From an uncultured Saprospiraceae bacterium (GTDB lineage: Bacteria > Bacteroidota > Bacteroidia > Chitinophagales > Saprospiraceae): 41,127 nucleotides of DNA. A program made the position numbers and the translations under genes. Positions 2,189 to 40,951 of this stretch are shown here, piece after piece. Each line of letters opens with the position of its first letter. Positions within the stretch are counted from its first letter, which is position 1. The DNA lies in assembly GCA_964445895.1 (NCBI GenBank), contig CAYUNA010000001.1, positions 1 through 41,127 of the forward strand, written 5' to 3'. A model generated the notes under the pieces. It was not told the origin of the DNA. It ran no database searches and was given only the letters and a program-made list of their open reading frames with translations.

Positions 2189-3067
2189 CTACCGTTTCAG
2201 AAATGCCGTAATCTCCATTGCCGCCGAAGCCACCGCCAATTTTCCATCAGATTTGTTAATAGCATCCAAAACCTTCGTAAAAATCAAATGCTTAGTACCA
2301 CGACGTTTCTTGAAGTCCACCACATAACGCAAGGTAAACGTTATCCAATTTTCATCAAAAGCCATCGTCACCATTGGAGCAACTTGGGCATTTTCCACCA
2401 TTAGCTTTTCGGTCATTTTTGCCCAATCTTGTTCGGCTGCTTTGGCAAAATCTCCATTCACTTCATTAAGTATTTCTGTGAATTTTTGTCGGGCATATTC
2501 GTAATCACCTTCCGTTTTGATGGGAATGGTCACTTCATCCCAGAGAAACGGAAAATCACCCGAATAGTTATAGACAGGCTCTTTGAAAATAAAACTGTTG
2601 GCGATACGCACAATTTTACCATTATAAAGGTCGCCATTGACCCAATCGCCAATCTGCATCATCGAAGTACGCAAAACGCCAATATCTACTACATCGCCCT
2701 TGATACCGCCGAGCATCACACGGTCGCCTACCTTGTAGAAGTTAGAAAAATTAATGGCAACGAATCCCGCGATACTGGCAATGACTTCCTGCAAGGCGAA
2801 GGCGATACCTGCACCCGCAACCCCTAAGAAAACGGTCAATCCTGATAACTGGCTACTGTAAATCACCATTATCATCAGCGCAATTAGAATGTAACCGATG
2901 TAGCCAACAAATTTCCTGATTTTGTAGCGGCTATTGGTTTCTTTGACGTAACGGGGAATAATATTTTTAACCAATCCCGTGATGGTAAAAATGATAAATG
3001 CGCCGATGATAACCGCCGCTAATTTTTGGAAAGTCGGGTCTTCAAAATATGCTGTAAATTCTTCCAT
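2189..3067 (-). CDS. Small MscS-family mechanosensitive channel
   Basis: 292 aa. N-terminal TM helices are followed by an MscS beta-domain-like VGDRVMLGGIKGDVVDIGVLRTSMMQIGD. Confidence 0.85.
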   Translation of the reverse strand: MEEFTAYFEDPTFQKLAAVIIGAFIIFTITGLVKNIIPRYVKETNSRYKIRKFVGYIGYILIALMIMVIYSSQLSGLTVFLGVAGAGIAFALQEVIASIAGFVAINFSNFYKVGDRVMLGGIKGDVVDIGVLRTSMMQIGDWVNGDLYNGKIVRIANSFIFKEPVYNYSGDFPFLWDEVTIPIKTEGDYEYARQKFTEILNEVNGDFAKAAEQDWAKMTEKLMVENAQVAPMVTMAFDENWITFTLRYVVDFKKRRGTKHLIFTKVLDAINKSDGKLAVASAAMEITAFLKR

Positions 3068-3092
3068 GATTAATCGTTTTTCGTTTTAAAAT

Positions 3093-4724
3093 CTATGCTT
3101 CGTTTGTAGGTTTATTAGTAGAATTATCCACCTTAAACGCAGGTGCTTTGTAATCTTTCTTCAAGTAATTTTGCGGCACTGCCATCTGATTACCATCCCG
3201 TACCGCCATATAATGCGACGACATAATCTCCAAGCCTGCTTCATTAAACACATCCTGAATATTGGCGTGAAGATTAGAATAAATTTTGGAAATTTTATGA
3301 CTATCTTTGGTATAAACGTTCAACTCATACGCCACATACCAATCATCAAGGCTTTTTTGTAGTACAAAGGGCTTGGGTTCTTTCTCTACTAAATCCGTTC
3401 TCAAAGCTGCATCTTCCAACAACTGATGAACTTGTGTCCAGGGGACATCGTAACCAATAGTGATAGTCGTTGGCAAAATTAAGCCTTGTTCCTCTGCCAA
3501 AGTAGAATAATTGACGACACCACCGCCTAATAGGATGGCGTTGGGAATAGTGGTTTCTTCATTCTTGGTTGTCTTTACCCTGGTGACTAATAAATTCCGA
3601 CTAATGACGCTACCCGAAATATTGTTGATTTTCACAAAATCACCGATTTTGAAGGGGCGCATATATGTTAAAATTACACCCGAAATCACATTGCTAATTA
3701 TCCCTGCTGACCCTAAAGAAAGGAGCAGACCAATAAAAACGGAAACTCCTTGAAACGCATCCGAACCAGAGCCGGGCAAATAAGGGAAGATGATAACTAA
3801 AGTGAAAATGATAATCAAGACCCGAAATAAATTGAAGGTCGGAAATGCCCAATCGGGGAAAAATCCATTGACTTTGATGCGCTCCGTTTTGATTTGAATG
3901 GCGAAGTAGCCCAAGCCTTTTATCAGGTATTTGACAGCAATAATAATGATAAAAATAAAGAGTAAATTAGGGAGAAAGCCAACAAAACTATCTGCCAAAA
4001 ACCGTAGCGGTCGCAAGACATATCCCATTAGCTTTTCGCCAAAACCTCTCGTGTAGGAAATTTGGCTAAACATGAAAGGCAGATAGAAATAAAGGAAAAC
4101 ACCAATTGCTGTAAAGCGGGTCATTCGCAGCAGAAAAAGTAAAATACCGCGCTCCGTTTCGGGTGTAATAAGTTCAAAGAACTTGACGAATCTGTTGTTT
4201 TGAAAAAAGACATTGTGGGATAAGGTTTTGAGGTTTCGACGGAAATAATCGAAAGTAGAATTGACTATCCATAAGACAATGAGAAAGCCAATCAGAGCTA
4301 AGAAAAAGAGTCCAATATCTTTCCCTAAATTCCCTATCGAAGTATCATTAAAATCATCAATCAGAGCTTTGCGAATGATTCTTTTTTTCGTTTCTGCGAG
4401 TTGTTCTAATGGTTCGTTTGCGGTGGTGGCATCCACTTGGGTAATGGTAGCAATTACCTTTCTGCGGTGCAAAATATCGGCATCTGCGCCCGAAGTGGTT
4501 ATCCTCAAGCTGTCAAATTCCGCAAGCGGTAATTTTGCCAATTGGCGAATATTGCGCTGAATCATTTCTGCCCGTTGCTGCGGCGAAAAGCCCCCGATTT
4601 TGTTTTCGATGATGAATAAAGTATCACCTTTAAACACCACAGGAGCAGGAACATTTTGAGCAGAACCAAGCGTAGCGCAAAGCGCAATCAGCAAAAAAGT
4701 AGATAAGTAAATATAGCGTTTCAT
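3093..4724 (-). CDS. Large MscS-family mechanosensitive channel with periplasmic N-domain
   Basis: 543 aa with a signal peptide and multiple TM helices. MscS-type beta domain FKIGDFVKINNISGSVISRNLLVTRVKTTKNEETTIPN. Confidence 0.85.
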   Translation of the reverse strand: MKRYIYLSTFLLIALCATLGSAQNVPAPVVFKGDTLFIIENKIGGFSPQQRAEMIQRNIRQLAKLPLAEFDSLRITTSGADADILHRRKVIATITQVDATTANEPLEQLAETKKRIIRKALIDDFNDTSIGNLGKDIGLFFLALIGFLIVLWIVNSTFDYFRRNLKTLSHNVFFQNNRFVKFFELITPETERGILLFLLRMTRFTAIGVFLYFYLPFMFSQISYTRGFGEKLMGYVLRPLRFLADSFVGFLPNLLFIFIIIIAVKYLIKGLGYFAIQIKTERIKVNGFFPDWAFPTFNLFRVLIIIFTLVIIFPYLPGSGSDAFQGVSVFIGLLLSLGSAGIISNVISGVILTYMRPFKIGDFVKINNISGSVISRNLLVTRVKTTKNEETTIPNAILLGGGVVNYSTLAEEQGLILPTTITIGYDVPWTQVHQLLEDAALRTDLVEKEPKPFVLQKSLDDWYVAYELNVYTKDSHKISKIYSNLHANIQDVFNEAGLEIMSSHYMAVRDGNQMAVPQNYLKKDYKAPAFKVDNSTNKPTNEA

Positions 4725-4728
4725 ATCT

Positions 4729-5520
4729 TTAGAAATTTACAGAGAAAGCAGAGGTGAAGCGGTGAAACCAATTGTTTATCGGCACAATTGGCGCAACATC
4801 GTAGATGTTTTGATACTGCGTACCCAATTGTAGATATTTGCTAATTTTCCAATTTAAGCCTGTACTACTTGCCAAGCGGGGCGATTGAAAAAATTGGTCA
4901 AAGCGCGGTTGATAGTAAAAACTGGCATCCAAAAAGAACTTTTCCGAGAACCATTTTTTATAGCTAAGGTAAAAGTTCATCCTTACTGTTTTTTGCGTGA
5001 TGGGTGAAGTATCTGGCGGTCGCAATTCATCTTTTACGCCGTTGTAATTCCATTTTTCATATTCATAGAATCCACCCAATCCAGCAAAAAGCCCCGCTTT
5101 GGCATTTCTCAAAAAGGCATATCGCAGATTCGCACCAACCGCATTTTTAAACTGTAAACCCCTTGCATCTGCCCATTGAATTTGCGCGAAGTATTCGGGG
5201 ATTAGTCGCCCATTTTTATTGCTTTTCCACTTGGCGAACACATAGCCACCACTTAACGCCGTTTGGTCGCCAATTGCGGTAAATTCCGTTTTTTGGGCAA
5301 GGGTCAGACTGTTGTTCTTCAGCCGAAAAACCAAATCCGTTACGCTACTGATTTCCACGAATAATTCTTTTTGTGTTTGTATTTTGACTTCAGGGGAAAA
5401 CGACCCCTTGAAATTCTTAGTAGAATCCAACAAGACCACAAAATTTTCGGGGAAAATGATTTGAGCATTTCCTTTCGGTAATAGAAAATAGCAGCAACAT
5501 AGAATTAGAAAATATTTCAC
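4729..5520 (-). CDS. Putative outer-membrane beta-barrel protein (DUF481-like guess)
   Basis: Signal peptide MKYFLILCCCYFLLPKGNAQ, amphipathic beta-strand pattern and aromatic C-terminus ...AFSVNF. Only a 4-nt gap separates it from the downstream MscS gene (3093-4724), so they are probably co-transcribed. Confidence 0.6.
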   Translation of the reverse strand: MKYFLILCCCYFLLPKGNAQIIFPENFVVLLDSTKNFKGSFSPEVKIQTQKELFVEISSVTDLVFRLKNNSLTLAQKTEFTAIGDQTALSGGYVFAKWKSNKNGRLIPEYFAQIQWADARGLQFKNAVGANLRYAFLRNAKAGLFAGLGGFYEYEKWNYNGVKDELRPPDTSPITQKTVRMNFYLSYKKWFSEKFFLDASFYYQPRFDQFFQSPRLASSTGLNWKISKYLQLGTQYQNIYDVAPIVPINNWFHRFTSAFSVNF

Positions 5521-5615
5521 TTAAAGTTCGTTAATTAACAAAAATCGCAATATAATTAAAGTATCAACGTATTTAGTAAAAACTGTTTTGAAACTCCATA
5601 TTGTATCAATTTATT

Positions 5616-6584
5616 TTATAGTTTTTCGCTGCAATTATGGCAATAAGTAGCATTCGTATGGTGTTCCTCCTGTCCGCAGTTGCTACATTCTTTAGAGATT
5701 ACTTCCTTCAAATTCATCACCCGACCGCTAATTTCAGCCGTCACGATGCCCGTAGGGACGGCAATAACGCCGTAGCCCATAATCATCACCGCCGTAGCCA
5801 AAAATTTTCCAAAAGGTGTGATTGGCGTAATATCGCCATACCCGACGGTAGTAAGAGTAACAATCGCCCAATAAATCCCCTTCGGGATGTTGTTTAGATT
5901 GGGATTGGTGTTGCCCTCCACAATGTAAAGCAAAGAGCCAATTATCATCGCCATCAGAATCACGAAGGTAATAAAAACCGAAATTTTGGTGCGGCTTGCC
6001 CGCAGCGCACTTAAAATTACATTGCCCTCTGATACAAAATGACCCATCTTGAAAATCCGAAAAACACGAAGCAAACGCAATGCCCTAACGATGATTAGGT
6101 TCTGCGCTCCAATAAAAAAGATGCCCAAGTAAGACGGGATAATTGCCAGTAAATCTACGATACCAAAAAAGGAAGTAGCGTAAGCCAACGGATTTTTGGA
6201 ACTATACAAGCGTAGCACATATTCGACCGTAAAAATAATGGTAAACAGCCATTCCAAGACAAAGAAAATCCACCAATGCGCCTTTTGAAACTCCGATACC
6301 GTTTCCAACATAACAATCAAAATGCTGATGGAAATTAGCCAAATTAACACCTTATCGAATCGGCGACCCGTTTGGGTATCGTTTTCAAAAATGACGTTGT
6401 GAAGGTAAGCTCTCTGCTTGCTGTTAATGCGCCTGTCCAACTGCTTTTTACCCCAAGCAGCAAAAGCAAAAACCCACGCTTTCAGCTTGTAAGGAGTGGC
6501 GATAATAATGCCTTTCAGGAAATGGTAAAATCGGACTATCTGCCGAATTATCCACCGTCCAAATTGTTGTAATTTATTTTTCAT
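5616..6584 (-). CDS. Voltage-gated-type K+ channel with C-terminal CxxC-x11-CxxC tail
   Basis: The ORF track (5616-6665) begins at TTG. The internal ATG at 6582-6584 (MKNKLQQF...) lies 22 nt below a promoter-like motif. S4-like RALRLLRVFRIFK and pore TTVGYGD. Confidence 0.85.
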   Translation of the reverse strand: MKNKLQQFGRWIIRQIVRFYHFLKGIIIATPYKLKAWVFAFAAWGKKQLDRRINSKQRAYLHNVIFENDTQTGRRFDKVLIWLISISILIVMLETVSEFQKAHWWIFFVLEWLFTIIFTVEYVLRLYSSKNPLAYATSFFGIVDLLAIIPSYLGIFFIGAQNLIIVRALRLLRVFRIFKMGHFVSEGNVILSALRASRTKISVFITFVILMAMIIGSLLYIVEGNTNPNLNNIPKGIYWAIVTLTTVGYGDITPITPFGKFLATAVMIMGYGVIAVPTGIVTAEISGRVMNLKEVISKECSNCGQEEHHTNATYCHNCSEKL

Positions 6585-10125: not shown

Positions 10126-13100
10126 CTACTTTACACAGAGTCCGTTTTCACTATGTTCTGAAGTCAAGAATGATACATCAGCGTATTCATTTTGCAATAC
10201 TAAAATATGGCATCTTCTTGTGGTATCATCACTATTTTGTGTTTTAAAATTGATTATTGCCTGTACGCTTTTACCAACCAAAGTTGTATTATCTATTTCA
10301 CTATCATCGGGCAATATTGATTTCAATTTATCAAAACCAAAATCTACCATAACTTCAATTAATCCAGCTTGATAAACAGGTTTAACAGATATAATAGTTC
10401 CCGTTCTGATGTCCAGTTTTGCGAAATCTTCTAATTGAATCTGTGGTTTGATAGTCGCCACGTTTGTTTTGTACCAGACTTCTAATATTTCAAAAAGAAT
10501 CTCGGTCTGAAAATGAGTCTGCTGGGAAAGATAACGAAAAGACCGGAAAATTAGATTTGGGAAAAAATTAGTAATTAAGACAGACATAATCTCATGGATG
10601 GCTTTAATTTTTTTATCTTCAGTTATAGACTTAGCCATAATGAGTCGATTCATAAAGTGAAATACTTTCAATAAACTATGCCCGTAGTTGTTTGTGTTGA
10701 GTTCAAAAAAATGATGACAAACCTTAAAATTATCTAATCGAATTGCTGCATACAAAACATCTTCTTTTACAGCAATATTCTTGTAATTTAGTTGTAATAA
10801 TTTGACCAATTTCTCGTTCAAAAAATCATGACTAATCATTTCATTATTTTGTTTTTGAAATTTTATTAAATCAACCGTTCCAAGTGCCTTTATTCCGAGG
10901 TCATTTTTTGTAACTTCTCTAAAAACATAATCATCAGATAACAAAACAAAATTGTTTTCCTGAGCGATAAGAACTGTATCATAGAAGCTGTTTTCATAAA
11001 TTTCTACCTTTCTTTGATGTTCTTCTATTCTGCCTTCTTTTCTAAGATTAACAGGCGACGGCGGGTGGCAATACTTTTCTACAAAAGAAAGTAAGTCTGT
11101 AAAATATTTGAGTGTCGCTTCTTTTTCTTTTCTTGTTTTTTCATATCTGAATTCCTGTCCATCTTTTTCAATAATCTGAAAAGAATTCTGCTTCAACTCC
11201 TCTTCTTTTTGGATAAGTAAGTTTTTTACAAGTTCCAAAGTAGAGTAAGAGATGTGTATTTTACCATAAAAAGTATTAATCCATTGCCCCAATTCTAAAT
11301 GATGAAGGGCTAAAATTGAAGTAACATCGCAGCAAAATTCCACGTTTGCATTTTTAAGATGCAAAAACACTTCTACGGTTTCCTCTTCAAATCCAGAAGA
11401 ACAGTTGATTCCAATTGATTCATCATTAATGAATTTGTGCCACAATAGAATTGGGTTGATATTTTCATAGAAAGCAACAAAGCCAAGAGGGACATTACTT
11501 TTTCGATAAAAACTATGTACTTGCTCAACAGCTTCCTGACGCTTTCTGTTTTGTTCTAAATTTTTATCCAAGAATGTTTTTATAGACTCCAAACCATTGC
11601 CTATCACTATTTTCAAATTTGGGTCATCACTAAATTTTCCACCTAACAATTCGATACTTTGCAGAAAAGCATAGTGGTCTTTGGTCAAAATCTTACTGAC
11701 TCTAACCGTTTGTTCTACATTTAAGAAATTATTCTCACCCCAAGGGATAATATCTCCGACTTTTTTTGCTTTTAACTTTTCAAATAAAGGGTCGCTGACG
11801 TTTATCTCATGCCTTGCTTTATTCGCATCAACTCTATTCTCAATTATGTAAGTGATTTGAAAAGCGTTCTCCTTTTCTAAAAACACTACAGTATCTAATC
11901 CAACTTCATTAACTCTTAACTCTTCCTTCGTCTGATTGATTTTTGTACTAATGAAAACATAAGCCTGATGCGCTTCTGCTGTGTCAAATAAGCGGCGCAT
12001 TTCATAGACAAGGTTTAATACTTCTGCCTTTTTGCCTACCTGAAGCAGCATCGAAGCAATTCTTTGCACTGAAAAAACAGAAAGTTGTGCAAGTGGTATT
12101 TTCTGAATTTTTGATAAAATATCCTTTGTTTCTTCCTCCAGATAAAAAGTCAACTCTCCAAGTCTTAGCAACATTTCCACATCCTCTTCATAAGTGCTGC
12201 AATACAATTTCATTAAATCGAATGCCGCTCGAAAATCTTTGATATAGACATACGTATTGATTAACTCTTTGGTCAAATAAGTTGTTATGCCTATAGCCTC
12301 ATAAGACTCTTTGCAATGCGCAATTACTTTATTAAAATTACCACTTTCTTTGTAGCAATGAATTAAGCATTCAGATAAATAACTTGGTTCTGCTGGCGAC
12401 AAGAATTTTTCAAAGATTACGACGGCTTCAGCAAATTTTTCAGATTCCATTAGTGATATGGCCAATTCACTTAATTCAGTATCTGTGGTGTTTTCGTCAA
12501 TTAGATTGAGTGCTTCCTCTGCATATTGATTGACCTTTTCAAATTCTTCTTTGGCAAAAGCCAATCTCCCTTTGAGAGCTAATACAGAAATACAAACAGG
12601 TGCTTTTTCTAACAGACTATTCATTTTTTCTAACCTATTACAAGATAAATAAAGGTTTGACAAGAAATGTATAGCTCTATCTATTAGAAGTGAATCGGGA
12701 TGATTTTTAATGAATTTTTCTAATCTTGAAATAGCTTCTTCTTGATTTTCAGGTTTATAAGTGTTAAAAAGAGACTCTGCAAAAATCATCAAGACATCGT
12801 GATAATCGGGATGCGTAAAATCATTTATTTCTCTGCACATTTGTATCAAATCATCCTGTTTTCCCCATTTTTTTAAGAAGTAAATTTTTTGACTATACAA
12901 TGAGGGGGTCTCTTCTACATTTAAGGCAACATCTATCCACTTAATAGCTTCCTCATAAAGTCCTAACGCTGAATATACCGTGCTAATATTGATAGGCATT
13001 CCTATAAATTCCTTGTTCAAATCCGTGTTTCCATGTACTTCCCATACTTCTTTATACAATTTAATGGCTAAGCGTAAATCGCTCTTTTTATATTCTGGGA

Positions 13101-14361
13101 TAAAAGTTTCCTTTACGGAGTGAAACCTAGAGGAATAAGTGTACGAAATGTTGTAAGCTAAAATTGGTTTGTATAATAAGCCATTGTCATCACGATTAGC
13201 AATGGCTTTCAACATATAAATTTTGTATTTCTCAATATTATCTTTCCTTAAATATGCTTTTGCAAGAGAATAATTCAACTCTGAATTGCTGATTAAATTA
13301 GTAGGCAGATTATCAATAACATCTTCGATATTACAATTTTCTTCATTTAATTGAATGACAAAATTTTGTAAGGTATTCGGATGATGAAGTTTTAATTCTT
13401 CACTCAATTCCTCCGCTTTTTCAGGTTGATTGAGCATTCTATATCCTACTAATGCTTGATAAATAGCGTTAGAAGAATTAGGGGCATAAACCAATGCCTC
13501 GATATAGTTTTGACCTGCTACCTGAAATTTCCCTAAGCGCTCCCTTGACTTGCCAAGATTCCCGATAGTCAAAAACATCAATTTATTATCATTAACCTGG
13601 TCACGTTCCAATTTTGATTTCAATTCTAAAAGAACCTGTTCTGCTTTGTAGTAATTTTGAATTTTTAGTAATTCCAGACCTTCATTTAGTCTATCTTTAT
13701 ATTCAGCAATTAAGCTATTTACAAAATCCTCTGTTTTCGACTTACTGATTGCTTCTAACAGTCTATTTTCCATCTGCACCAAGCCATTATTTACTCCACC
13801 TATTGCCTCTCTGGTAGCTTCAACACCGATAGAAATTTCATCCAATTTTCTCCTCTGTCCATCAATATTAGCCCGTATCTGTTCAATTACTTCATGTGAC
13901 TCAAAAACTTGATATAAAAGCACATAAATACCTTGCCTTTCAGATAATTGATTAAACAAAGTCTCTTGAAAACCTGATAAAGCGTTACGAATTAGTCTCT
14001 GCGCCAATTTGCTATCAATAGATTGACTGTGTTCTTCATCCAAAATTTTTAAAAAATTCTGAATCAGTAATTCGATAAAATCAGGCTTTGTCAGGGCTTC
14101 TCGAAAATTAGATACATTCTGAATATTTAAATTGAAGAGAGCTACTAACCTTTTTCGTTCTAACCGAACAAGCCATTCTAATTGTTGTAAAGTTGTTTTT
14201 TCACCTGCCTTTACTTTTGCCTTTTCGTCACTTAAACATTTTTGGAAAGAATTATAAAATACATTTTCTAACTGACTAACCGCTCCAAATGCTGTGAGTT
14301 TTTTAACCCAACTTGAAAAACCTGCAATGTTGCCAAATGTAAATTTGAATATCTCAAGCAT
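10126..14361 (-). CDS. 1411-aa multidomain protein: N-terminal coiled-coil, TPR-like array, GreA/B-C-like, PIN-like, C-terminal tRNA-binding (Trbp111/CsaA-type OB)-like
   Basis: Single uninterrupted ORF. aa ~815-895 TYIIENRVDANKARHEINVSDPLFEKLKAKKVGDII aligns by eye to the GreA C-domain ([31 protein letters not shown]). aa ~1005-1165 EFCCDVTSILAL...LLSDDYVF...GTVDLI shows PIN-like acidic residues. aa ~1305-1405 LEDFAKLDIRTGTIISVKP...VDFG...LVGKSVQAIINFK resembles the tRNA_bind OB. Confidence 0.9.
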   Translation of the reverse strand: MLEIFKFTFGNIAGFSSWVKKLTAFGAVSQLENVFYNSFQKCLSDEKAKVKAGEKTTLQQLEWLVRLERKRLVALFNLNIQNVSNFREALTKPDFIELLIQNFLKILDEEHSQSIDSKLAQRLIRNALSGFQETLFNQLSERQGIYVLLYQVFESHEVIEQIRANIDGQRRKLDEISIGVEATREAIGGVNNGLVQMENRLLEAISKSKTEDFVNSLIAEYKDRLNEGLELLKIQNYYKAEQVLLELKSKLERDQVNDNKLMFLTIGNLGKSRERLGKFQVAGQNYIEALVYAPNSSNAIYQALVGYRMLNQPEKAEELSEELKLHHPNTLQNFVIQLNEENCNIEDVIDNLPTNLISNSELNYSLAKAYLRKDNIEKYKIYMLKAIANRDDNGLLYKPILAYNISYTYSSRFHSVKETFIPEYKKSDLRLAIKLYKEVWEVHGNTDLNKEFIGMPINISTVYSALGLYEEAIKWIDVALNVEETPSLYSQKIYFLKKWGKQDDLIQMCREINDFTHPDYHDVLMIFAESLFNTYKPENQEEAISRLEKFIKNHPDSLLIDRAIHFLSNLYLSCNRLEKMNSLLEKAPVCISVLALKGRLAFAKEEFEKVNQYAEEALNLIDENTTDTELSELAISLMESEKFAEAVVIFEKFLSPAEPSYLSECLIHCYKESGNFNKVIAHCKESYEAIGITTYLTKELINTYVYIKDFRAAFDLMKLYCSTYEEDVEMLLRLGELTFYLEEETKDILSKIQKIPLAQLSVFSVQRIASMLLQVGKKAEVLNLVYEMRRLFDTAEAHQAYVFISTKINQTKEELRVNEVGLDTVVFLEKENAFQITYIIENRVDANKARHEINVSDPLFEKLKAKKVGDIIPWGENNFLNVEQTVRVSKILTKDHYAFLQSIELLGGKFSDDPNLKIVIGNGLESIKTFLDKNLEQNRKRQEAVEQVHSFYRKSNVPLGFVAFYENINPILLWHKFINDESIGINCSSGFEEETVEVFLHLKNANVEFCCDVTSILALHHLELGQWINTFYGKIHISYSTLELVKNLLIQKEEELKQNSFQIIEKDGQEFRYEKTRKEKEATLKYFTDLLSFVEKYCHPPSPVNLRKEGRIEEHQRKVEIYENSFYDTVLIAQENNFVLLSDDYVFREVTKNDLGIKALGTVDLIKFQKQNNEMISHDFLNEKLVKLLQLNYKNIAVKEDVLYAAIRLDNFKVCHHFFELNTNNYGHSLLKVFHFMNRLIMAKSITEDKKIKAIHEIMSVLITNFFPNLIFRSFRYLSQQTHFQTEILFEILEVWYKTNVATIKPQIQLEDFAKLDIRTGTIISVKPVYQAGLIEVMVDFGFDKLKSILPDDSEIDNTTLVGKSVQAIINFKTQNSDDTTRRCHILVLQNEYADVSFLTSEHSENGLCVK

Positions 14362-32911: not shown

Positions 32912-33397
32912 TTACTCATCAACCACTTTCTTCACCACTAAAATTACCGTTCCCACCTTCCCAAAGGTATGATAAATCGGCATACTCGTCACCATTTCTG
33001 TTTCACTACTGCCCCACCCCATTGCTGGATTAGTGGCATCAAAATCTGGGAAAATTTGTTGGATGTTGCGAGCTTCAAATTTAGCATTGGTGGCGTATTT
33101 AATTGCTCCATTTTGGTCGCAAAGTAAGATGCCACTGACATTTTTTTCGCTAAGAATGCTTGCAAAAACGTCTTTTGCATCGGTCGAGATGCCATTGAGT
33201 AGTACGTCTTTTCCAGTGATGGCGAGTATTTTTAAGACCGTTTTGGAGCTTAACAATTCCTGATTGAAGAATTGCTGATAAGCTGCTGCTACCGTATCTG
33301 CTTGGTTATTTCCGAAGGAAAAACTATCGAAAAAACCTTGCTTGGGTGTAAGCTTTGGTTCATCGGTTTCCGCCAATTCAGCAACGGGATGGGTCAC
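32912..33397 (-). CDS. 161-aa hypothetical protein (PAS/Cache-like fold guess)
   Basis: ATG ORF with no signal peptide. GILLCDQNGAIKYATN ... IYHTFGKVGTVILVV resembles sensor-fold strands. Confidence 0.6.
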   Translation of the reverse strand: MTHPVAELAETDEPKLTPKQGFFDSFSFGNNQADTVAAAYQQFFNQELLSSKTVLKILAITGKDVLLNGISTDAKDVFASILSEKNVSGILLCDQNGAIKYATNAKFEARNIQQIFPDFDATNPAMGWGSSETEMVTSMPIYHTFGKVGTVILVVKKVVDE

Positions 33398-33528: not shown

Positions 33529-36500
33529 ATGCAATCAGGCTTCAAAAACAACCGAAATCAAGACGCTGCGGCTACTATTAGAGGATTTCTATATCAGGCG
33601 TATCAAACCATTGATTTGTGGCTTCAACTTAATGATGGGGAACAGTTAGAATTAGAAAAAGGGGAAGATGTTGATATTGTCAAAGAAAATGATGCTCGGG
33701 ATTTAATCCAAGTAAAAGACTTAATATCAAAGATTACGCTTCGCGATAAAAATGTAGGAGAGTGTTTATTTAATTGGTATCAACATCAAAAGACCAATCC
33801 GAATTTTACCCTTAAATTTTGTTTTTTGACAACTGCCACAACAACAAAAGAAAAAGGTAGCCAATTTCCTAATGGTAAATGTGGCATAGAAATATGGCAA
33901 GAAATACATACAGATAAATGTACCGACAAGGATTTAGCACTCAAAGAGATTAAGAAAATATTGCTTGAAGCAGCACAAACATTAAAAGGTAAGCAATCTA
34001 AAAAACAAAATGCGGCTTGGGATGATTGGGTTAATTATCTCAATAATGTTAAAGGAGCTGACTTAGAAATTTTTATCAAAGGATTTTATTTCTTACCCGC
34101 CCAACAAAAATTGGATGATTTAAGAAATGCTATTGGAATTGCGTTACTTCAAAAGAAAAAAGCAACAACCAAAAATCTTGAAAGTAGAATTCAAACGTTT
34201 TTGACCTATGTTTTTCACAAGCTTTCAGAACCAGGTAAGAAAATTCTGACCGTCGAGGAAATTACCACTTGCGTTGATTGTAATTCAACTAATGAATTGA
34301 AAGAGTTAAATAATAAGTTGAAAGATTTAGAAGATTTCTATTCTCCGACAAATTTTTTGCAGAGACAACAACTCCACGAATATCCTAATCAGGAGAGTGT
34401 AAATAATTACAAAAAATCAATTAGAAAAGCTTATAAAAATTGGAATGTACCGCAAGAAGTAATTGGCTGGGAAGAGATTTCTACGAAGCAATTTGACCCA
34501 AAAGAAATTCATAGGTTTAAGGAAAAAGCAACCCAAGAAGATAGATTATCAACTTTAAATGCACCACTATTAAAATATAGAGGTTTAGGACAAAGAACCA
34601 ATCAAAATATTTGGATATTTGAAGGAAATACTGGTTTGGGGAAAACAGTATTTCTGAAGTGTTTGAATTATGAATTTGCAAGCATAGACAATCCAAAAAT
34701 TCCTATTTATATTCCGTTGAGAAAAATCAGTTCTCAGAATACTCTCAAAAAGCTTATCCTAAATGAATTAAATCAAAATGACTATGAAATAAAGGAAGAA
34801 CAGCTTTTTAAATTACTAAAAAATCATCCTTTTACCCTATTGTTAGATGCCTATGACGAGGTTGACAAAACCTTTATTAGAACACTAAAAGAAGAAATCG
34901 GAGAGTTCGAAAGATTCTGTAAAATAATCATTACTACCAGACCAGTAGCCGTACTCAAGCTACCAAAATCGACGACCTTTGAACTTCAACCATTGGAGTA
35001 TGACAGAGTCAAATCAATTGTAATTGAATACATTGGAGAATCCTCTTACTATGATTTCATCAAAAAAATTGAACAACATGGCTTACTCTCAGAAACTAAG
35101 AATATACTGCTATTACTCTTATTTATTGGCGTTTATCGAAAACATGGACAAGTTCCAGCTTCTAACTCTGAACTGATTAAAACAATTGTAGACGATATTT
35201 TTACATGGGTTTCCTCTAAAAATACCGCTGAAAATAGTTGGTTTACAAAGAATGTTATCGAAGATATTTTAGAGCAAATTGCTTATATTATTTATTCCAA
35301 AAATAGCAAAACGCAATTATTGAGTGAAGAAATTGACAAATTTTTCTTTGAATATATCGAAGATAAAGCCAAATTAAGGCAGATTCCCCAAGAAGAGACC
35401 ATTGCGAAATTAAAGCATAGAATGGCACAAATTGGAATACTTATTTTTAATAAAAATGGAGAAATTTATTTTTGGCATCGACTATTTTTGAATCACTTTG
35501 CGACCATTTCTTTTGCAAAAAAAATCACCGCAGAAGAAATAGACTTAAAAAAAGTAATAGTAGAATATCACTGGATTATTCCGTTAATTAACTGTCCACC
35601 TTATCTTCCAGAAAAAAAGCAAATTGAATTTTTAGCACTCATAGAAGATAACCTTTGGCTAATAGCTGAAGCTTTAGCAAACGTATTAAACCCTTCGAAA
35701 GAATTATTACAAGAAACCATTCAACGACTAAAAGTCTGTTGTGTTTCGGGCATCTTTAAAATAAGGATGCATGGAATTCATTATCTTAAAATACTCAACC
35801 AAAAACATCGTCAATACACCAGTCCTGTTATCTGGGAATTATTTAATTCAACTTCATTGTGTGTTGAAGTGAGAAGGATAGCATTTTTGGAAATTGCCAG
35901 TGAAAAGTCAGAAGCCGCTCAAAAATTAGTTTTTGACCATTTAGATTGGGACGAGGGCAGTCAATTCAATGTCATTGGGACACAAGAAGAAGTAATAAAA
36001 GCATTGTCTTATTGCGGAGAAAAAGGGTATTGGCAAATGTTTGAATTACTAAAATTACGGTATTCGAGAATTTCTTTCTCTTTTGATAATGTTTTCTCAG
36101 AATTGATAACTTTCAACAAGTTACCCGAAGATTTGCTACAAGCAATATTTGACTGGTTTATTGAAGAATTTAATGATGATAATACTGAACGAATTCATTA
36201 TAAAATCCCTCTTTTACTTGGGAAGATACGAAAAGAAGGATGGATATCCACGCTAATTTTAACTCTAAAAAATGCTATTATCCAAAACGGAGGCAAACTC
36301 AGATTTTCAAATATTAACATCATCAGAATATTAGAAGAATACACTTCCAAAGAATGTATCAATTTACTTTGGCAAGAATATAATTCTCCTGAAACTGTAT
36401 TAGAATTAAAACGTGACATTGCAACAATTTTATCTAAATATCAGGGTGATGTTCCGCTTACATATTATCAAACATTGATTGAAGAAGAAGATATTAATTG

Positions 36501-37452
36501 TAAAAAATCAGGAATTAAAGGACTTGGACGATTTGAATACGGAGAAATACATTTACAGTTAAAGGATTTACTTCATCATGAAGAATGTGAAATCCACCGG
36601 TTGGCTTTTGAGGTATCTCTTGAAAATGGTTTTATCCTTGAACTGTTAAAAGAAGATTTTATTACAGAAGATTTTTTAGCCGATTGTCACTGGAAAACTG
36701 TATTTTTTTTAAAAGCTATCGCTAAATATGGATTAGAAAATCAAATTGATTTTATTAGAGATGTTATCAATAAAAATGGTGGAAGTTACTCTATTTTGGT
36801 TCACTATTTAAAAGCTTTAGCAGCTAATAATCTACAAGATAGATTGGTGGAAACCTTCAAAATGAATTATTTCAAAGATGAAAAATTAAAATTTCCAGAA
36901 GAAAATGATTGTGTTAGGCAACAAATCAATAAGTTTGAAATAATTGAACTTTTGCCTACAAAAACTGCAATAGAGATGCTAACTATTCTGTATGAACAAT
37001 CGATAAATGCTGAAGATTTAAGAAATTTTTCCTATTATTTCGATGATGCTTATAAAAATAATTTTTCTCCTGATTTCTCTCCATTTTTGAAAAAATTAGT
37101 GATTGATTCAATCGAATATAACAACGTCAAAAATAATAAGAAAATTTATTCCACTCACCGTTACCTGTTGGCTTTGTCAACTATGATTAAAGATGACGAT
37201 GAGTCATGGTTAATTGACTTATTCAAAAAATACCCACAAGCAGATGTTCAAGTAAGAATAAAAATAATATCGTTGTTAGGTAGAATTACAAAAACTAAAT
37301 CTGCCGTCGAATTAGCAAAAACTACTGCGAAAACGACAGCAAATGGCATTATACTAAACTCTTGCTACGAAATTCTTGTTACTTACAATCGAAGAAATGG
37401 AATTTTACGGCAAATAAAAGAGTCAGAACTTTTTGATTACAATACGATGTAG
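33529..37452 (+). CDS. STAND/NACHT NTPase with N-terminal DUF4297 (Cap4-like PD-(D/E)xK nuclease) domain and C-terminal helical-repeat region (Avs/bNACHT-like antiphage protein)
   Basis: N-terminus RGFLYQAYQTIDLWLQL...LEKGEDVDIV...LIQVKD. Walker A FEGNTGLGKTVFLK, Walker B FTLLLDAYDEVD and the NACHT-type IIITTRP. About 700 aa of HEAT/ARM-like helical repeats follow. Confidence 0.9.
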   Translation: MQSGFKNNRNQDAAATIRGFLYQAYQTIDLWLQLNDGEQLELEKGEDVDIVKENDARDLIQVKDLISKITLRDKNVGECLFNWYQHQKTNPNFTLKFCFLTTATTTKEKGSQFPNGKCGIEIWQEIHTDKCTDKDLALKEIKKILLEAAQTLKGKQSKKQNAAWDDWVNYLNNVKGADLEIFIKGFYFLPAQQKLDDLRNAIGIALLQKKKATTKNLESRIQTFLTYVFHKLSEPGKKILTVEEITTCVDCNSTNELKELNNKLKDLEDFYSPTNFLQRQQLHEYPNQESVNNYKKSIRKAYKNWNVPQEVIGWEEISTKQFDPKEIHRFKEKATQEDRLSTLNAPLLKYRGLGQRTNQNIWIFEGNTGLGKTVFLKCLNYEFASIDNPKIPIYIPLRKISSQNTLKKLILNELNQNDYEIKEEQLFKLLKNHPFTLLLDAYDEVDKTFIRTLKEEIGEFERFCKIIITTRPVAVLKLPKSTTFELQPLEYDRVKSIVIEYIGESSYYDFIKKIEQHGLLSETKNILLLLLFIGVYRKHGQVPASNSELIKTIVDDIFTWVSSKNTAENSWFTKNVIEDILEQIAYIIYSKNSKTQLLSEEIDKFFFEYIEDKAKLRQIPQEETIAKLKHRMAQIGILIFNKNGEIYFWHRLFLNHFATISFAKKITAEEIDLKKVIVEYHWIIPLINCPPYLPEKKQIEFLALIEDNLWLIAEALANVLNPSKELLQETIQRLKVCCVSGIFKIRMHGIHYLKILNQKHRQYTSPVIWELFNSTSLCVEVRRIAFLEIASEKSEAAQKLVFDHLDWDEGSQFNVIGTQEEVIKALSYCGEKGYWQMFELLKLRYSRISFSFDNVFSELITFNKLPEDLLQAIFDWFIEEFNDDNTERIHYKIPLLLGKIRKEGWISTLILTLKNAIIQNGGKLRFSNINIIRILEEYTSKECINLLWQEYNSPETVLELKRDIATILSKYQGDVPLTYYQTLIEEEDINCKKSGIKGLGRFEYGEIHLQLKDLLHHEECEIHRLAFEVSLENGFILELLKEDFITEDFLADCHWKTVFFLKAIAKYGLENQIDFIRDVINKNGGSYSILVHYLKALAANNLQDRLVETFKMNYFKDEKLKFPEENDCVRQQINKFEIIELLPTKTAIEMLTILYEQSINAEDLRNFSYYFDDAYKNNFSPDFSPFLKKLVIDSIEYNNVKNNKKIYSTHRYLLALSTMIKDDDESWLIDLFKKYPQADVQVRIKIISLLGRITKTKSAVELAKTTAKTTANGIILNSCYEILVTYNRRNGILRQIKESELFDYNTM

Positions 37453-39589: not shown

Positions 39590-39916
39590 TTAAAATAGGG
39601 TCAATTGATTTTGTTGCTGTACCCTTTTAAGGTGCGCTTTCCATTTTTTACTTTGCTCTGCTTCTGCTAACCAAGATTTTACAAACTCAATAGGAGCATC
39701 AAAATCCTCTATTGATTGAGCCGCTGTAAAGTGAGAACGGTAGCCTGTTTCGGTCATTGGCAGCGGAACTCTATCTTTAGATAATACTTCCAAATGGGCT
39801 AAACGATACCCTTTAACTCTTTTAGTGGCTTCGGAATAATCGGGATTGTAAAGGATTTCAATTTCTATTGCATTCCACAGCAATGAAAAGCGTTGATAGG
39901 CAGCTTTATTGACCAT
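39590..39916 (-). CDS. 108-aa hypothetical protein downstream of the ArdC-like gene
   Basis: ATG ORF that overlaps the ArdC-like stop by 11 nt. Confidence 0.65.
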   Translation of the reverse strand: MVNKAAYQRFSLLWNAIEIEILYNPDYSEATKRVKGYRLAHLEVLSKDRVPLPMTETGYRSHFTAAQSIEDFDAPIEFVKSWLAEAEQSKKWKAHLKRVQQQNQLTLF

Positions 39917-40847
39917 TGCAAATAAATTTAGCTGCCTTTTCCGCCTGCGCTGCTGCGGTTACGACCATTTTGACATCTGCTTTCAAAACATTCAACCAAC
40001 CCCGCAAATAAGCCGCTTGGTTTTGCACCAATTTTGGTAGGTCAATTTGACAATCAAAACATAAAAATGCGCTCGTCATTTCGGCAATTAATTCTTCTCT
40101 ACTGTATTCGGCAGAACCAAAAGCAGCAGGTCGCGCACCTGTTTTAAATCGGTCTAATCGGCTGTGGTGTCCCGTCCAATGTCCCAACTCATGGAAAAGG
40201 GTGCTGTAATATTCTTCGCTATTATCAAATTGTTTGATTCTCGGCATATTCACAATGTCCAGGGATGGAGAATAATAGGCTTTTGCTTTGTTCATAAATT
40301 CCAATGTCAAATTTTTGCAACCCTTGACAATTTCTTCGCAGCGGTCAATTTTTTCGTTGACTTTCAGTTCCCTCCACTCTGGTCGGGATGACAAAGAGTC
40401 AAACTCAATTCCTTCGATTTGGGTCGCATTAAACACCTTATAAAACCGTAAAAAGGGAATTGATTTATCCGCTTCTTCCCTCGTTTTTACTTTTTGACCA
40501 TTTGCATCCAAGTGCATCCAATTCCAGTAAAAAACGGGCGTGGATTTCTCTCCTTTAATCACTTTTCCACCCATCTCGCTCACTTGCTTGAAAGTCAAAA
40601 AATAGGGGTTGTCAAATTCGCAAAGCAGTAAAAAGAAATTGATGCCAGAATATGGACGTTTGGTTTTGTAATTCATTGGACGGACGCCGTTAGTCCCGTG
40701 AATGCTTTTCCAAGGTTTGCGCCATGCGGCTGTACCTGATTCTAATAAATCGGTAATTTTATCGGTGACGATTTGATAAACGGTTCCTCCACTTCGGTCG
40801 GAATGACAAGTTTTTTGTCGGTCGGAATGACAAGTTTTCTTTTTCAT
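39906..40847 (-). CDS. ardC: ArdC-like antirestriction protein (N-terminal ssDNA-binding DUF1738-type + zincin HExxH domain)
   Basis: The ORF track gives 39906-40928 and the likely start is M28 (MKKKTCHSDR...). ITDLLESGTAAWRKPW...RPYSGINFFLL is an ArdC-N pattern. The metallopeptidase motif is LFHELGHWTGH. Confidence 0.8.
   Translation of the reverse strand: MKKKTCHSDRQKTCHSDRSGGTVYQIVTDKITDLLESGTAAWRKPWKSIHGTNGVRPMNYKTKRPYSGINFFLLLCEFDNPYFLTFKQVSEMGGKVIKGEKSTPVFYWNWMHLDANGQKVKTREEADKSIPFLRFYKVFNATQIEGIEFDSLSSRPEWRELKVNEKIDRCEEIVKGCKNLTLEFMNKAKAYYSPSLDIVNMPRIKQFDNSEEYYSTLFHELGHWTGHHSRLDRFKTGARPAAFGSAEYSREELIAEMTSAFLCFDCQIDLPKLVQNQAAYLRGWLNVLKADVKMVVTAAAQAEKAAKFICNGQ
40368..40394 (+). repeat. 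REP-like repeat copy R3 (inside the ArdC-like coding region)
   Basis: ttccctccactctggtcgggatgacaa, translated on the minus strand as ...LSSRPEWRE... between the two ArdC domains. Confidence 0.5.
40784..40834 (+). repeat. REP-like repeat copies R4+R5 in tandem (inside the ArdC-like 5' end)
   Basis: ttcctccacttcggtcggaatgacaag followed by tcggtcggaatgacaag, translated as TCHSDR-QK-TCHSDR. Confidence 0.55.
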
Positions 40848-40951
40848 CTGTTCAATTTTTCGATTTTGAGAAAAGGAATCCAGCCCCAACAATGTGGAAC
40901 TGTTGGGTACTGAATTCAAAAAATACATCGGCTAAAGTTTTAGCGACTTAA

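Follow-up and report, generated by a model that had tools for sequence, protein, structure and literature searches.

A NACHT protein with a predicted Cap4/LmuA-type nuclease head and a predicted HEAT-type sensor in a defence island of an uncultured Saprospiraceae bacterium

Bacterial NACHT proteins (bNACHTs) with effectors of the restriction endonuclease (REase) fold or with HEAT sensors are already known, as are structurally characterised Avs proteins headed by Cap4. The Cap4 heads of SeAvs3 and SeAvs7 were found to tetramerise upon target binding and to cleave DNA (10.64898/2026.01.04.697583), while the REase-headed bNACHT25 becomes toxic once the histidine of its winged-helix domain (WHD) is mutated (10.1101/2022.07.19.500537). 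Conserved phage proteins are sensed, and bound directly, by most characterised Avs families. The gene described here is located on the plus strand, at 33529..37452, of a 41,127-nucleotide stretch of DNA from an uncultured Saprospiraceae bacterium (contig CAYUNA010000001.1, assembly GCA_964445895.1), which is called the window in its full length. Judged by its sequence, the 1307-residue product, P0001, is a bacterial NLR-like protein made of a predicted DNA-cutting head, a NACHT ATPase switch and a predicted HEAT-repeat sensor. It is probably a single-gene antiviral STAND protein of the bNACHT/Avs-like kind, serving as a phage-sensing nuclease. The parts of the gene, each with the evidence by which it was placed, are these:

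33529..37452, plus strand: whole gene of P0001, 1307 residues (intact open reading frame (ORF), 0 internal stops)
33559..34221, plus strand: LmuA/Cap4-type PD-(D/E)xK nuclease domain, the predicted effector, residues 11-231 (PADLOC LmuA, hhalign)
33655..33717, plus strand: predicted active-site stretch E43...D47(/D49)...Q61-x-K63 (columns kept in relatives)
34222..34563, plus strand: helical linker and pre-NACHT region, residues 232-345 (tblastn, alignment to relatives)
34564..35838, plus strand: NACHT module, residues ~346-770, comprising the nucleotide-binding domain, helical domain 1, WHD and helical domain 2 (Pfam, VIA-align, conserved motifs)
34624-34647, plus strand: Walker A, G366-T373 (NACHT motif)
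34837-34866, plus strand: Walker B/acidic motif, D440-D443-E444 (NACHT motif)
34924-34944, plus strand: sensor-1, R471 (NACHT motif)
35470-35499, plus strand: WHD motif, F648-W-H650-R (NACHT motif)
35896..37428, plus strand: alpha-solenoid of ~26 helices, HEAT-type, the predicted sensor, residues ~790-1300 (AlphaFold2 model, homologue profiles)

The start codon is supported by P0002, a protein of 1331 residues that is 49% identical to P0001 and its sole full-length relative, because the two align co-linearly from residue 1. Comparison of the whole of P0001 with the sequences of the Protein Data Bank (PDB) by phmmer returned chance-level matches to Hsp104 only.

The centre of P0001 is a true NACHT domain, a canonical NTPase module with all the nucleotide-binding motifs. 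The Pfam profile NACHT (PF05729) matches residues 363-503 at 44.5 bits (cut-off 26.7), Pfam NB-ARC matches P0001 at 32 bits, and NACHT matches are present in all 27 aligned members of the family that shares this body. K372, D440, D443, E444, R471, P543 and F648 are invariant in these 27 members, 26 of which also keep H650, the histidine of the winged helix. The residues 340-1307 (window 34546-37449) were modelled by AlphaFold2 from an alignment of 46 sequences, with a mean predicted local distance difference test (pLDDT) score of 88.8 and a predicted template modelling score of 0.83. In VIA-align, the model residues 1-~430 (protein ~340-770) matched NLRC4 (4kxf), NLRP3 and NOD2 at Z 19-21 over 345-398 aligned residues, whereas Apaf-1, MalT and ORC/Cdc6 gave Z of about 12-13, well below the NLR rows. 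An earlier sequence-only reading of the locus had placed a NACHT domain here, and both the PF05729 score and the NLR-like fold bear it out; the motifs that it quoted, GNTGLGKT (366-373), LLLDAYDEVD (437-446) and IIITTRP (466-472), are all present. The closest structures are closed, ADP-bound or inhibitor-bound forms (4kxf at Z 21.2 and a root-mean-square deviation (rmsd) of 6.0), while the active NLRC4 and NLRP3 assemblies gave Z 12-15 (12-14 for 3jbl, 6b5b and 8ej4) and an rmsd near 10 Å. Since the model resembles the closed NLR forms over the active ones, its predicted state would be the resting one, which is a prediction only. Membership among the NTPases of EruA (Erebus/Avs10) was rejected on a weak NCBIfam match of 15.5 bits against a cut-off of 1000.

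The head belongs with the nuclease domain of LmuA. The PADLOC LmuA profile matches P0001 at residues 9-337 with E=8.3e-21 (5e-23 in a genome-wide scan). Canonical LmuA relatives were collected by running the PADLOC profile on genomes, and a profile of 18 of them, with both heads excluded, was aligned by hhalign to a profile of the two heads of P0001 and P0002; the match had Prob 97.8% and E=8e-13, and placed query residues 11-231 on LmuA 11-212. The same 18-protein profile recovers the solved LmuA structures 9hqu, 9hqx and 9nxx (E down to 6e-51) and matches the Cap4 structure 7yib weakly; by sequence, the relation of the head to CBASS Cap4 is at the superfamily level only. The motif G-[FY]-x-Y-Q at residues 19-23, upstream of the active-site stretch, is conserved in the 18 LmuA proteins together with E43, D47 and Q61-x-K63, and P0001 keeps these columns too, as do five further heads fused to STANDs (P0002, P0004, P0005, P0154, P0155). 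In the (D/E)xK triad, Q61 stands where the classical residue is E, and Q-x-K is the commoner form among the aligned LmuA proteins. CTD7, present in 15 of the 18 LmuA proteins, has no match in residues 1-345 of P0001, and SAVED has none in P0001. P0001 is a component of neither Lamassu nor CBASS. As a lead only, the nearest Atlas feature cluster of the head, at a score of 0.89, carries Cap4_nuclease on 46% of its members. When the head alone served as the query of a word-seeded search, no relative turned up among proteins 189-604 residues long. The sequence-only reading had assigned a DUF4297/Cap4 nuclease from the strings RGFLYQAYQ (18-26), EKGEDVDIV (43-51) and IQVKD (60-64). The strings are all there and the assignment is supported by the LmuA profile and the conserved residues, while PF14130 itself stayed below threshold; the loss of catalytic residues across homologs, which that reading had considered, did not occur, as E43, D47 and Q61-x-K63 are kept.

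The C-terminal region is modelled as an alpha-solenoid. HEAT_2 matches were found in 21 of the 27 family members (best E=8.5e-25), some of which also match HEAT, HEAT_PBS, HEAT_EZ or Arm, and the HEAT_2 matches of the homologues fall on P0001 residues 768-805, 897-968, 977-1032 and 1245-1265. In P0001 itself none of the HEAT families of Pfam matches at E<=1. The fold matches of the solenoid are Integrator, Kap121, Kap95, condensin Ycg1, SF3B1, CAND1 and importin-alpha at Z 12-13.7, a range near the background for helical repeats, and the HEAT call is therefore based mainly on the profile matches of the homologues. A TPR sensor was rejected for the NACHT-HEAT family, with profiles that are HEAT and folds that are HEAT/ARM rather than TPR sensors; TPR matches are confined to other Cap4-headed STANDs, whose bodies are unrelated. 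Thus the earlier description of a HEAT-like, not TPR, C-terminus stands as to its type by the homologues, and its length shrinks from ~700 to about 510 residues as the NACHT module extends to ~770. The sensor had also been taken for lineage-specific, but it is not private to P0001, being common to at least 29 HSDR_N-NACHT-HEAT clusters at 20-28% identity.

These relatives came from an exhaustive search with P0001 residues 340-1307 at E<=1e-30, with clusters at 50% identity. The 29 representatives of the NACHT-HEAT body are mostly ~1190 residues long, with the match beginning near their residue 255 and E reaching down to 3e-72. An HSDR_N/HSDR_N_2-type PD-(D/E)xK head of ~190 residues is found in 21 of the 27 aligned members, and the LmuA/Cap4-type head only in P0001 and P0002. 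The family is mainly of Bacteroidota, with named members from Imperialibacter (WP_416867741.1), Pedobacter, Sphingobacterium and a Bacteroidetes metagenome-assembled genome (MAG), and with more distant members labelled Chlamydiia and Cyanobacteriota. The full domain combination is rare: P0002 alone shares it in a set of 5.8 billion clusters, and none of 60 related genomes yielded a P0001-type protein.

The tblastn matches to the HSDR_N-headed relatives start at query residues 287-294, in the common pre-NACHT linker, and the Cap4-type and HSDR_N heads cross-match through the linker only. Since the homology to these relatives sets in at ~287, the junction of a swap would lie at about residues 250-290. 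A maximum-likelihood tree, made with a quick search from the linker-NACHT-sensor region, joins P0001 and P0002 in a pair with 100% support that is nested among 13 HSDR_N-headed proteins (15 rows, Shimodaira-Hasegawa-like approximate likelihood ratio test 99), and this 15-row set is itself nested in larger HSDR_N-dominated sets. Such nesting agrees with an ancestral HSDR_N head having given way to one of Cap4 type. Together, these comparisons point to P0001 as a chimera, in which the NACHT-HEAT body of an HSDR_N-headed family would have received a replacement Cap4-type head.

The closest relatives of the head itself, at 33-42% identity over residues 5-150, are on proteins of 1354-1425 residues with nSTAND3 or weak TPR matches. 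P0155 (1425 residues; also L030:2299-6555, minus strand) represents a family of 1413-1425 residues with a Cap4-type head at 33-37% identity, of which 18 members were found on 32 contigs. This family has no Pfam NTPase match, and P0154 has a weak TPR match only; such proteins may be divergent STANDs. Two further Cap4- or LmuA-headed proteins were seen in the same phylum: a Cap4-headed STAND of 964 residues with Cap4, NB-ARC and TPR (L031:1943-4837, plus strand), and a protein of 1292 residues that joins an LmuA-profile head to nSTAND5 (L029:2377-6255, plus strand).

The gene of P0001 sits in a defence island, and the loci of its homologues are likewise defence islands. The surrounding features of the window are:

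32912-33397, minus strand: flanking ORF, neighbour of the P0001 gene
37462-37911, minus strand: flanking ORF, neighbour of the P0001 gene
26208-29254, plus strand: PDC-M38A/B candidate defence pair (PADLOC E=1.9e-269 and 3.9e-79)
39906-40928, minus strand: ArdC-like anti-restriction protein (ArdcN and MPTase-PolyVal, E=5e-31 and 4e-37)
10126-14361, minus strand: ORF of 1411 residues in the same island (no PADLOC match at E<=1e-3)

Because both flanking ORFs are on the minus strand, the P0001 gene is monocistronic and stands alone. Promoter and terminator scans gave signals no better than chance level, and 0 tRNA genes were found in the window. The PDC-M38A/B pair upstream consists of a 739-residue AAA_15/AAA_21 ATPase and a 271-residue DUF3226 protein, and also upstream lies a TaqI_C-like ORF, whose match to type IIG is weak. 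A conserved gene that neighbours P0001 in the window finds its best matches in Cytophagales, Lewinellaceae and Hymenobacter, which makes an origin of the genome in Bacteroidota probable. The ArdC-like gene downstream suggests that the island is on or beside a conjugative element. Among the homologue loci, L003 is flanked by PifA-like, PDC-M62A/B and REase genes, and L005 has a DrmD-like helicase nearby. L006, of Pedobacter duraquae, carries a full-length homologue of PD-Lambda-4 (Avs8) at 2283-6086 on the minus strand (E=7.8e-48), ~1.3 kb upstream of the NACHT-HEAT homologue with one ORF of 351 residues between. In L004 (11212-15276, minus strand) and L007 (11201-15268, minus strand), an nSTAND_NTPase5 protein of 1354/1355 residues lies directly downstream of the NACHT-HEAT homologue, and the copies of this neighbour in a Bacteroidetes MAG and in Sphingobacterium puteale have 96% identity, which suggests a two-STAND island common to both loci and moving between genomes. 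None of the five neighbouring ORFs of P0001 in the window recurs in the seven homologue loci, and P0001 is therefore regarded as a one-gene system. A multi-gene system was rejected, the neighbours being on the opposite strand and not found in the homologue loci.

By analogy with SeAvs3, SeAvs7 and bNACHT25, a mechanism can be proposed in which P0001 at rest would be a closed monomer. The HEAT solenoid would bind a cue that stems from the phage, most likely one of its proteins, and this binding would open the NACHT module, upon which ATP binding would drive oligomerisation. The nuclease heads would thereby be brought together into an active DNase assembly that may cut double-stranded DNA without sequence preference, so as to stop the phage and probably the host cell too (abortive infection). 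On a bolder proposal, which is put forward tentatively and with less than even confidence, the HSDR_N/Cap4-NACHT-HEAT proteins would form a bNACHT lineage, mainly of Bacteroidota, whose solenoid recognises a cue outside those of the Avs/bNACHT families with known triggers, and P0001 and P0002 would mark a recent exchange of killing modules between NACHT-clade and non-NACHT STANDs.

Several observations weigh against the reading of P0001 as a phage-sensing nuclease of chimeric origin. Its function and trigger are drawn from analogy with the three proteins just named, and STAND NTPases also include non-immune regulators. The PADLOC Avs/bNACHT models gave 0 matches for P0001 (E<=1) and 0 for the 27 members (E<=1e-3), with the Avs/bNACHT content of that library unverified. 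The Pfam Cap4_nuclease profile stayed below threshold on the head (16.1-19.1 bits against a cut-off of 26.2, E=0.0016-0.013), and single-sequence AlphaFold2 of the head (residues 1-345) gave a pLDDT of 40 and no usable fold. To these are added the near-background fold matches of the solenoid. The tree was made by a quick method, the branch of the P0001 and P0002 pair is long (1.26), many rows are of odd composition, and the outgroup is not monophyletic. The low Cap4 score and the Q in the place of the classical E speak for one alternative in particular, that the head is a degenerate PD-(D/E)xK domain for DNA binding or oligomerisation only, or else that P0001 works with a neighbouring gene. 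Yet E43, D47, Q61 and K63 are conserved across the LmuA proteins and the six STAND-fused heads, and the Q-x-K form is not an oddity among the former. Likewise, the adjacent ORFs run on the opposite strand and 0 of the five neighbours recurs, and this alternative is considered very improbable in either form.

The nature of the cue can be conceived differently while P0001 remains the same defence protein. In indirect, guard-type sensing, the HEAT solenoid would keep watch over a host protein, or a complex, that the phage perturbs, or would need a host cofactor; DnaJ for bNACHT25 and EF-Tu in the SeAvs7 complex offer precedents, and HEAT solenoids are general scaffolds for protein-protein interaction, as the fold matches illustrate. 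Most characterised Avs families, however, bind phage proteins directly, and although the sequence of P0001 does not separate the two modes, guard-type sensing is judged rather unlikely. A STAND that does not act against phage at all, but targets plasmids or other mobile elements or benefits its carrier element through addiction or exclusion, would suit the conjugative-element setting suggested by ArdC at 39906-40928, and STAND clades do switch between defence and non-defence roles. Several independent homologue loci nonetheless lie among phage-defence genes, and the nuclease-NTPase-repeat layout is the same as that of tested antiviral STANDs, so that a role apart from phage appears improbable, though less so than a degenerate head. 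The antiviral, phage-sensing nuclease is thus retained as the probable function of P0001.

What is new in this locus is the joining of a head of the Cap4/LmuA type to a true NACHT and a HEAT sensor, together with the evidence that P0001 arose by head replacement and the HSDR_N-NACHT-HEAT family that stands behind it. P0001 is a clean case from nature of an effector exchanged while the NACHT-HEAT sensor body stays fixed, and it points to a family of candidate HEAT-sensor bacterial NLR-like proteins, with at least 29 clusters (50% identity) mostly in Bacteroidota. The established picture of antiviral STAND proteins is unchanged; the value lies in a candidate for trigger screens beyond Enterobacteriaceae. 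A string search of bNACHT Table S1, in the portion of it that was accessible, returned no REase+NACHT+HEAT entry and no Cap4/DUF4297 head, and the accessible parts of the supplements of two papers give no accessions or organisms of NACHT-HEAT family members.

Among the known systems close to it, P0001 has the layout of the bNACHTs, which are likewise encoded by a single gene, with the NACHT between a REase-fold effector and a C-terminal repeat sensor and with the WHD histidine that corresponds to H650 (10.1101/2022.07.19.500537). The same survey lists HEAT among the 'antigen-receptor type' sensors, including NACHT+HEAT_2 architectures, whereas bNACHT25 and bNACHT32 have short NCH1 C-termini in place of the HEAT solenoid of P0001. 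SeAvs3 and SeAvs7 (PDB 8dgc; 10.64898/2026.01.04.697583) resemble P0001 in joining a Cap4-type head to a STAND NTPase and to a large sensor of helical repeats, and Avs3 and Avs4 are among the Foldseek matches of the P0001 model. The sensor of SeAvs7 is nevertheless of TPR type and that of P0001 of HEAT type, and in VIA-align the P0001 NTPase aligns best with the NACHT modules of animal NLRs. The label 'Avs-like' in the sequence-only reading is apt for the effector-NTPase-sensor layout, which was verified, but less so for the clade, which is NACHT (bNACHT-like) and apparently outside Avs1-5. In Lamassu, LmuA (9hqu, 9hqx, 9nxx) is homologous to P0001 over its nuclease domain and the helical region next after it, and has the same conserved residues. 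LmuA continues into CTD7 in 15 of 18 proteins, while P0001 is without CTD7, its alignment ending at LmuA position 212, and has the domain fused to NACHT; for LmuB and LmuC, no PADLOC match was seen on the ORFs adjoining P0001. The HSDR_N-NACHT-HEAT family (~1190 residues) is likewise close to P0001, whose linker, NACHT and whole HEAT sensor are homologous to it and whose nuclease head differs.

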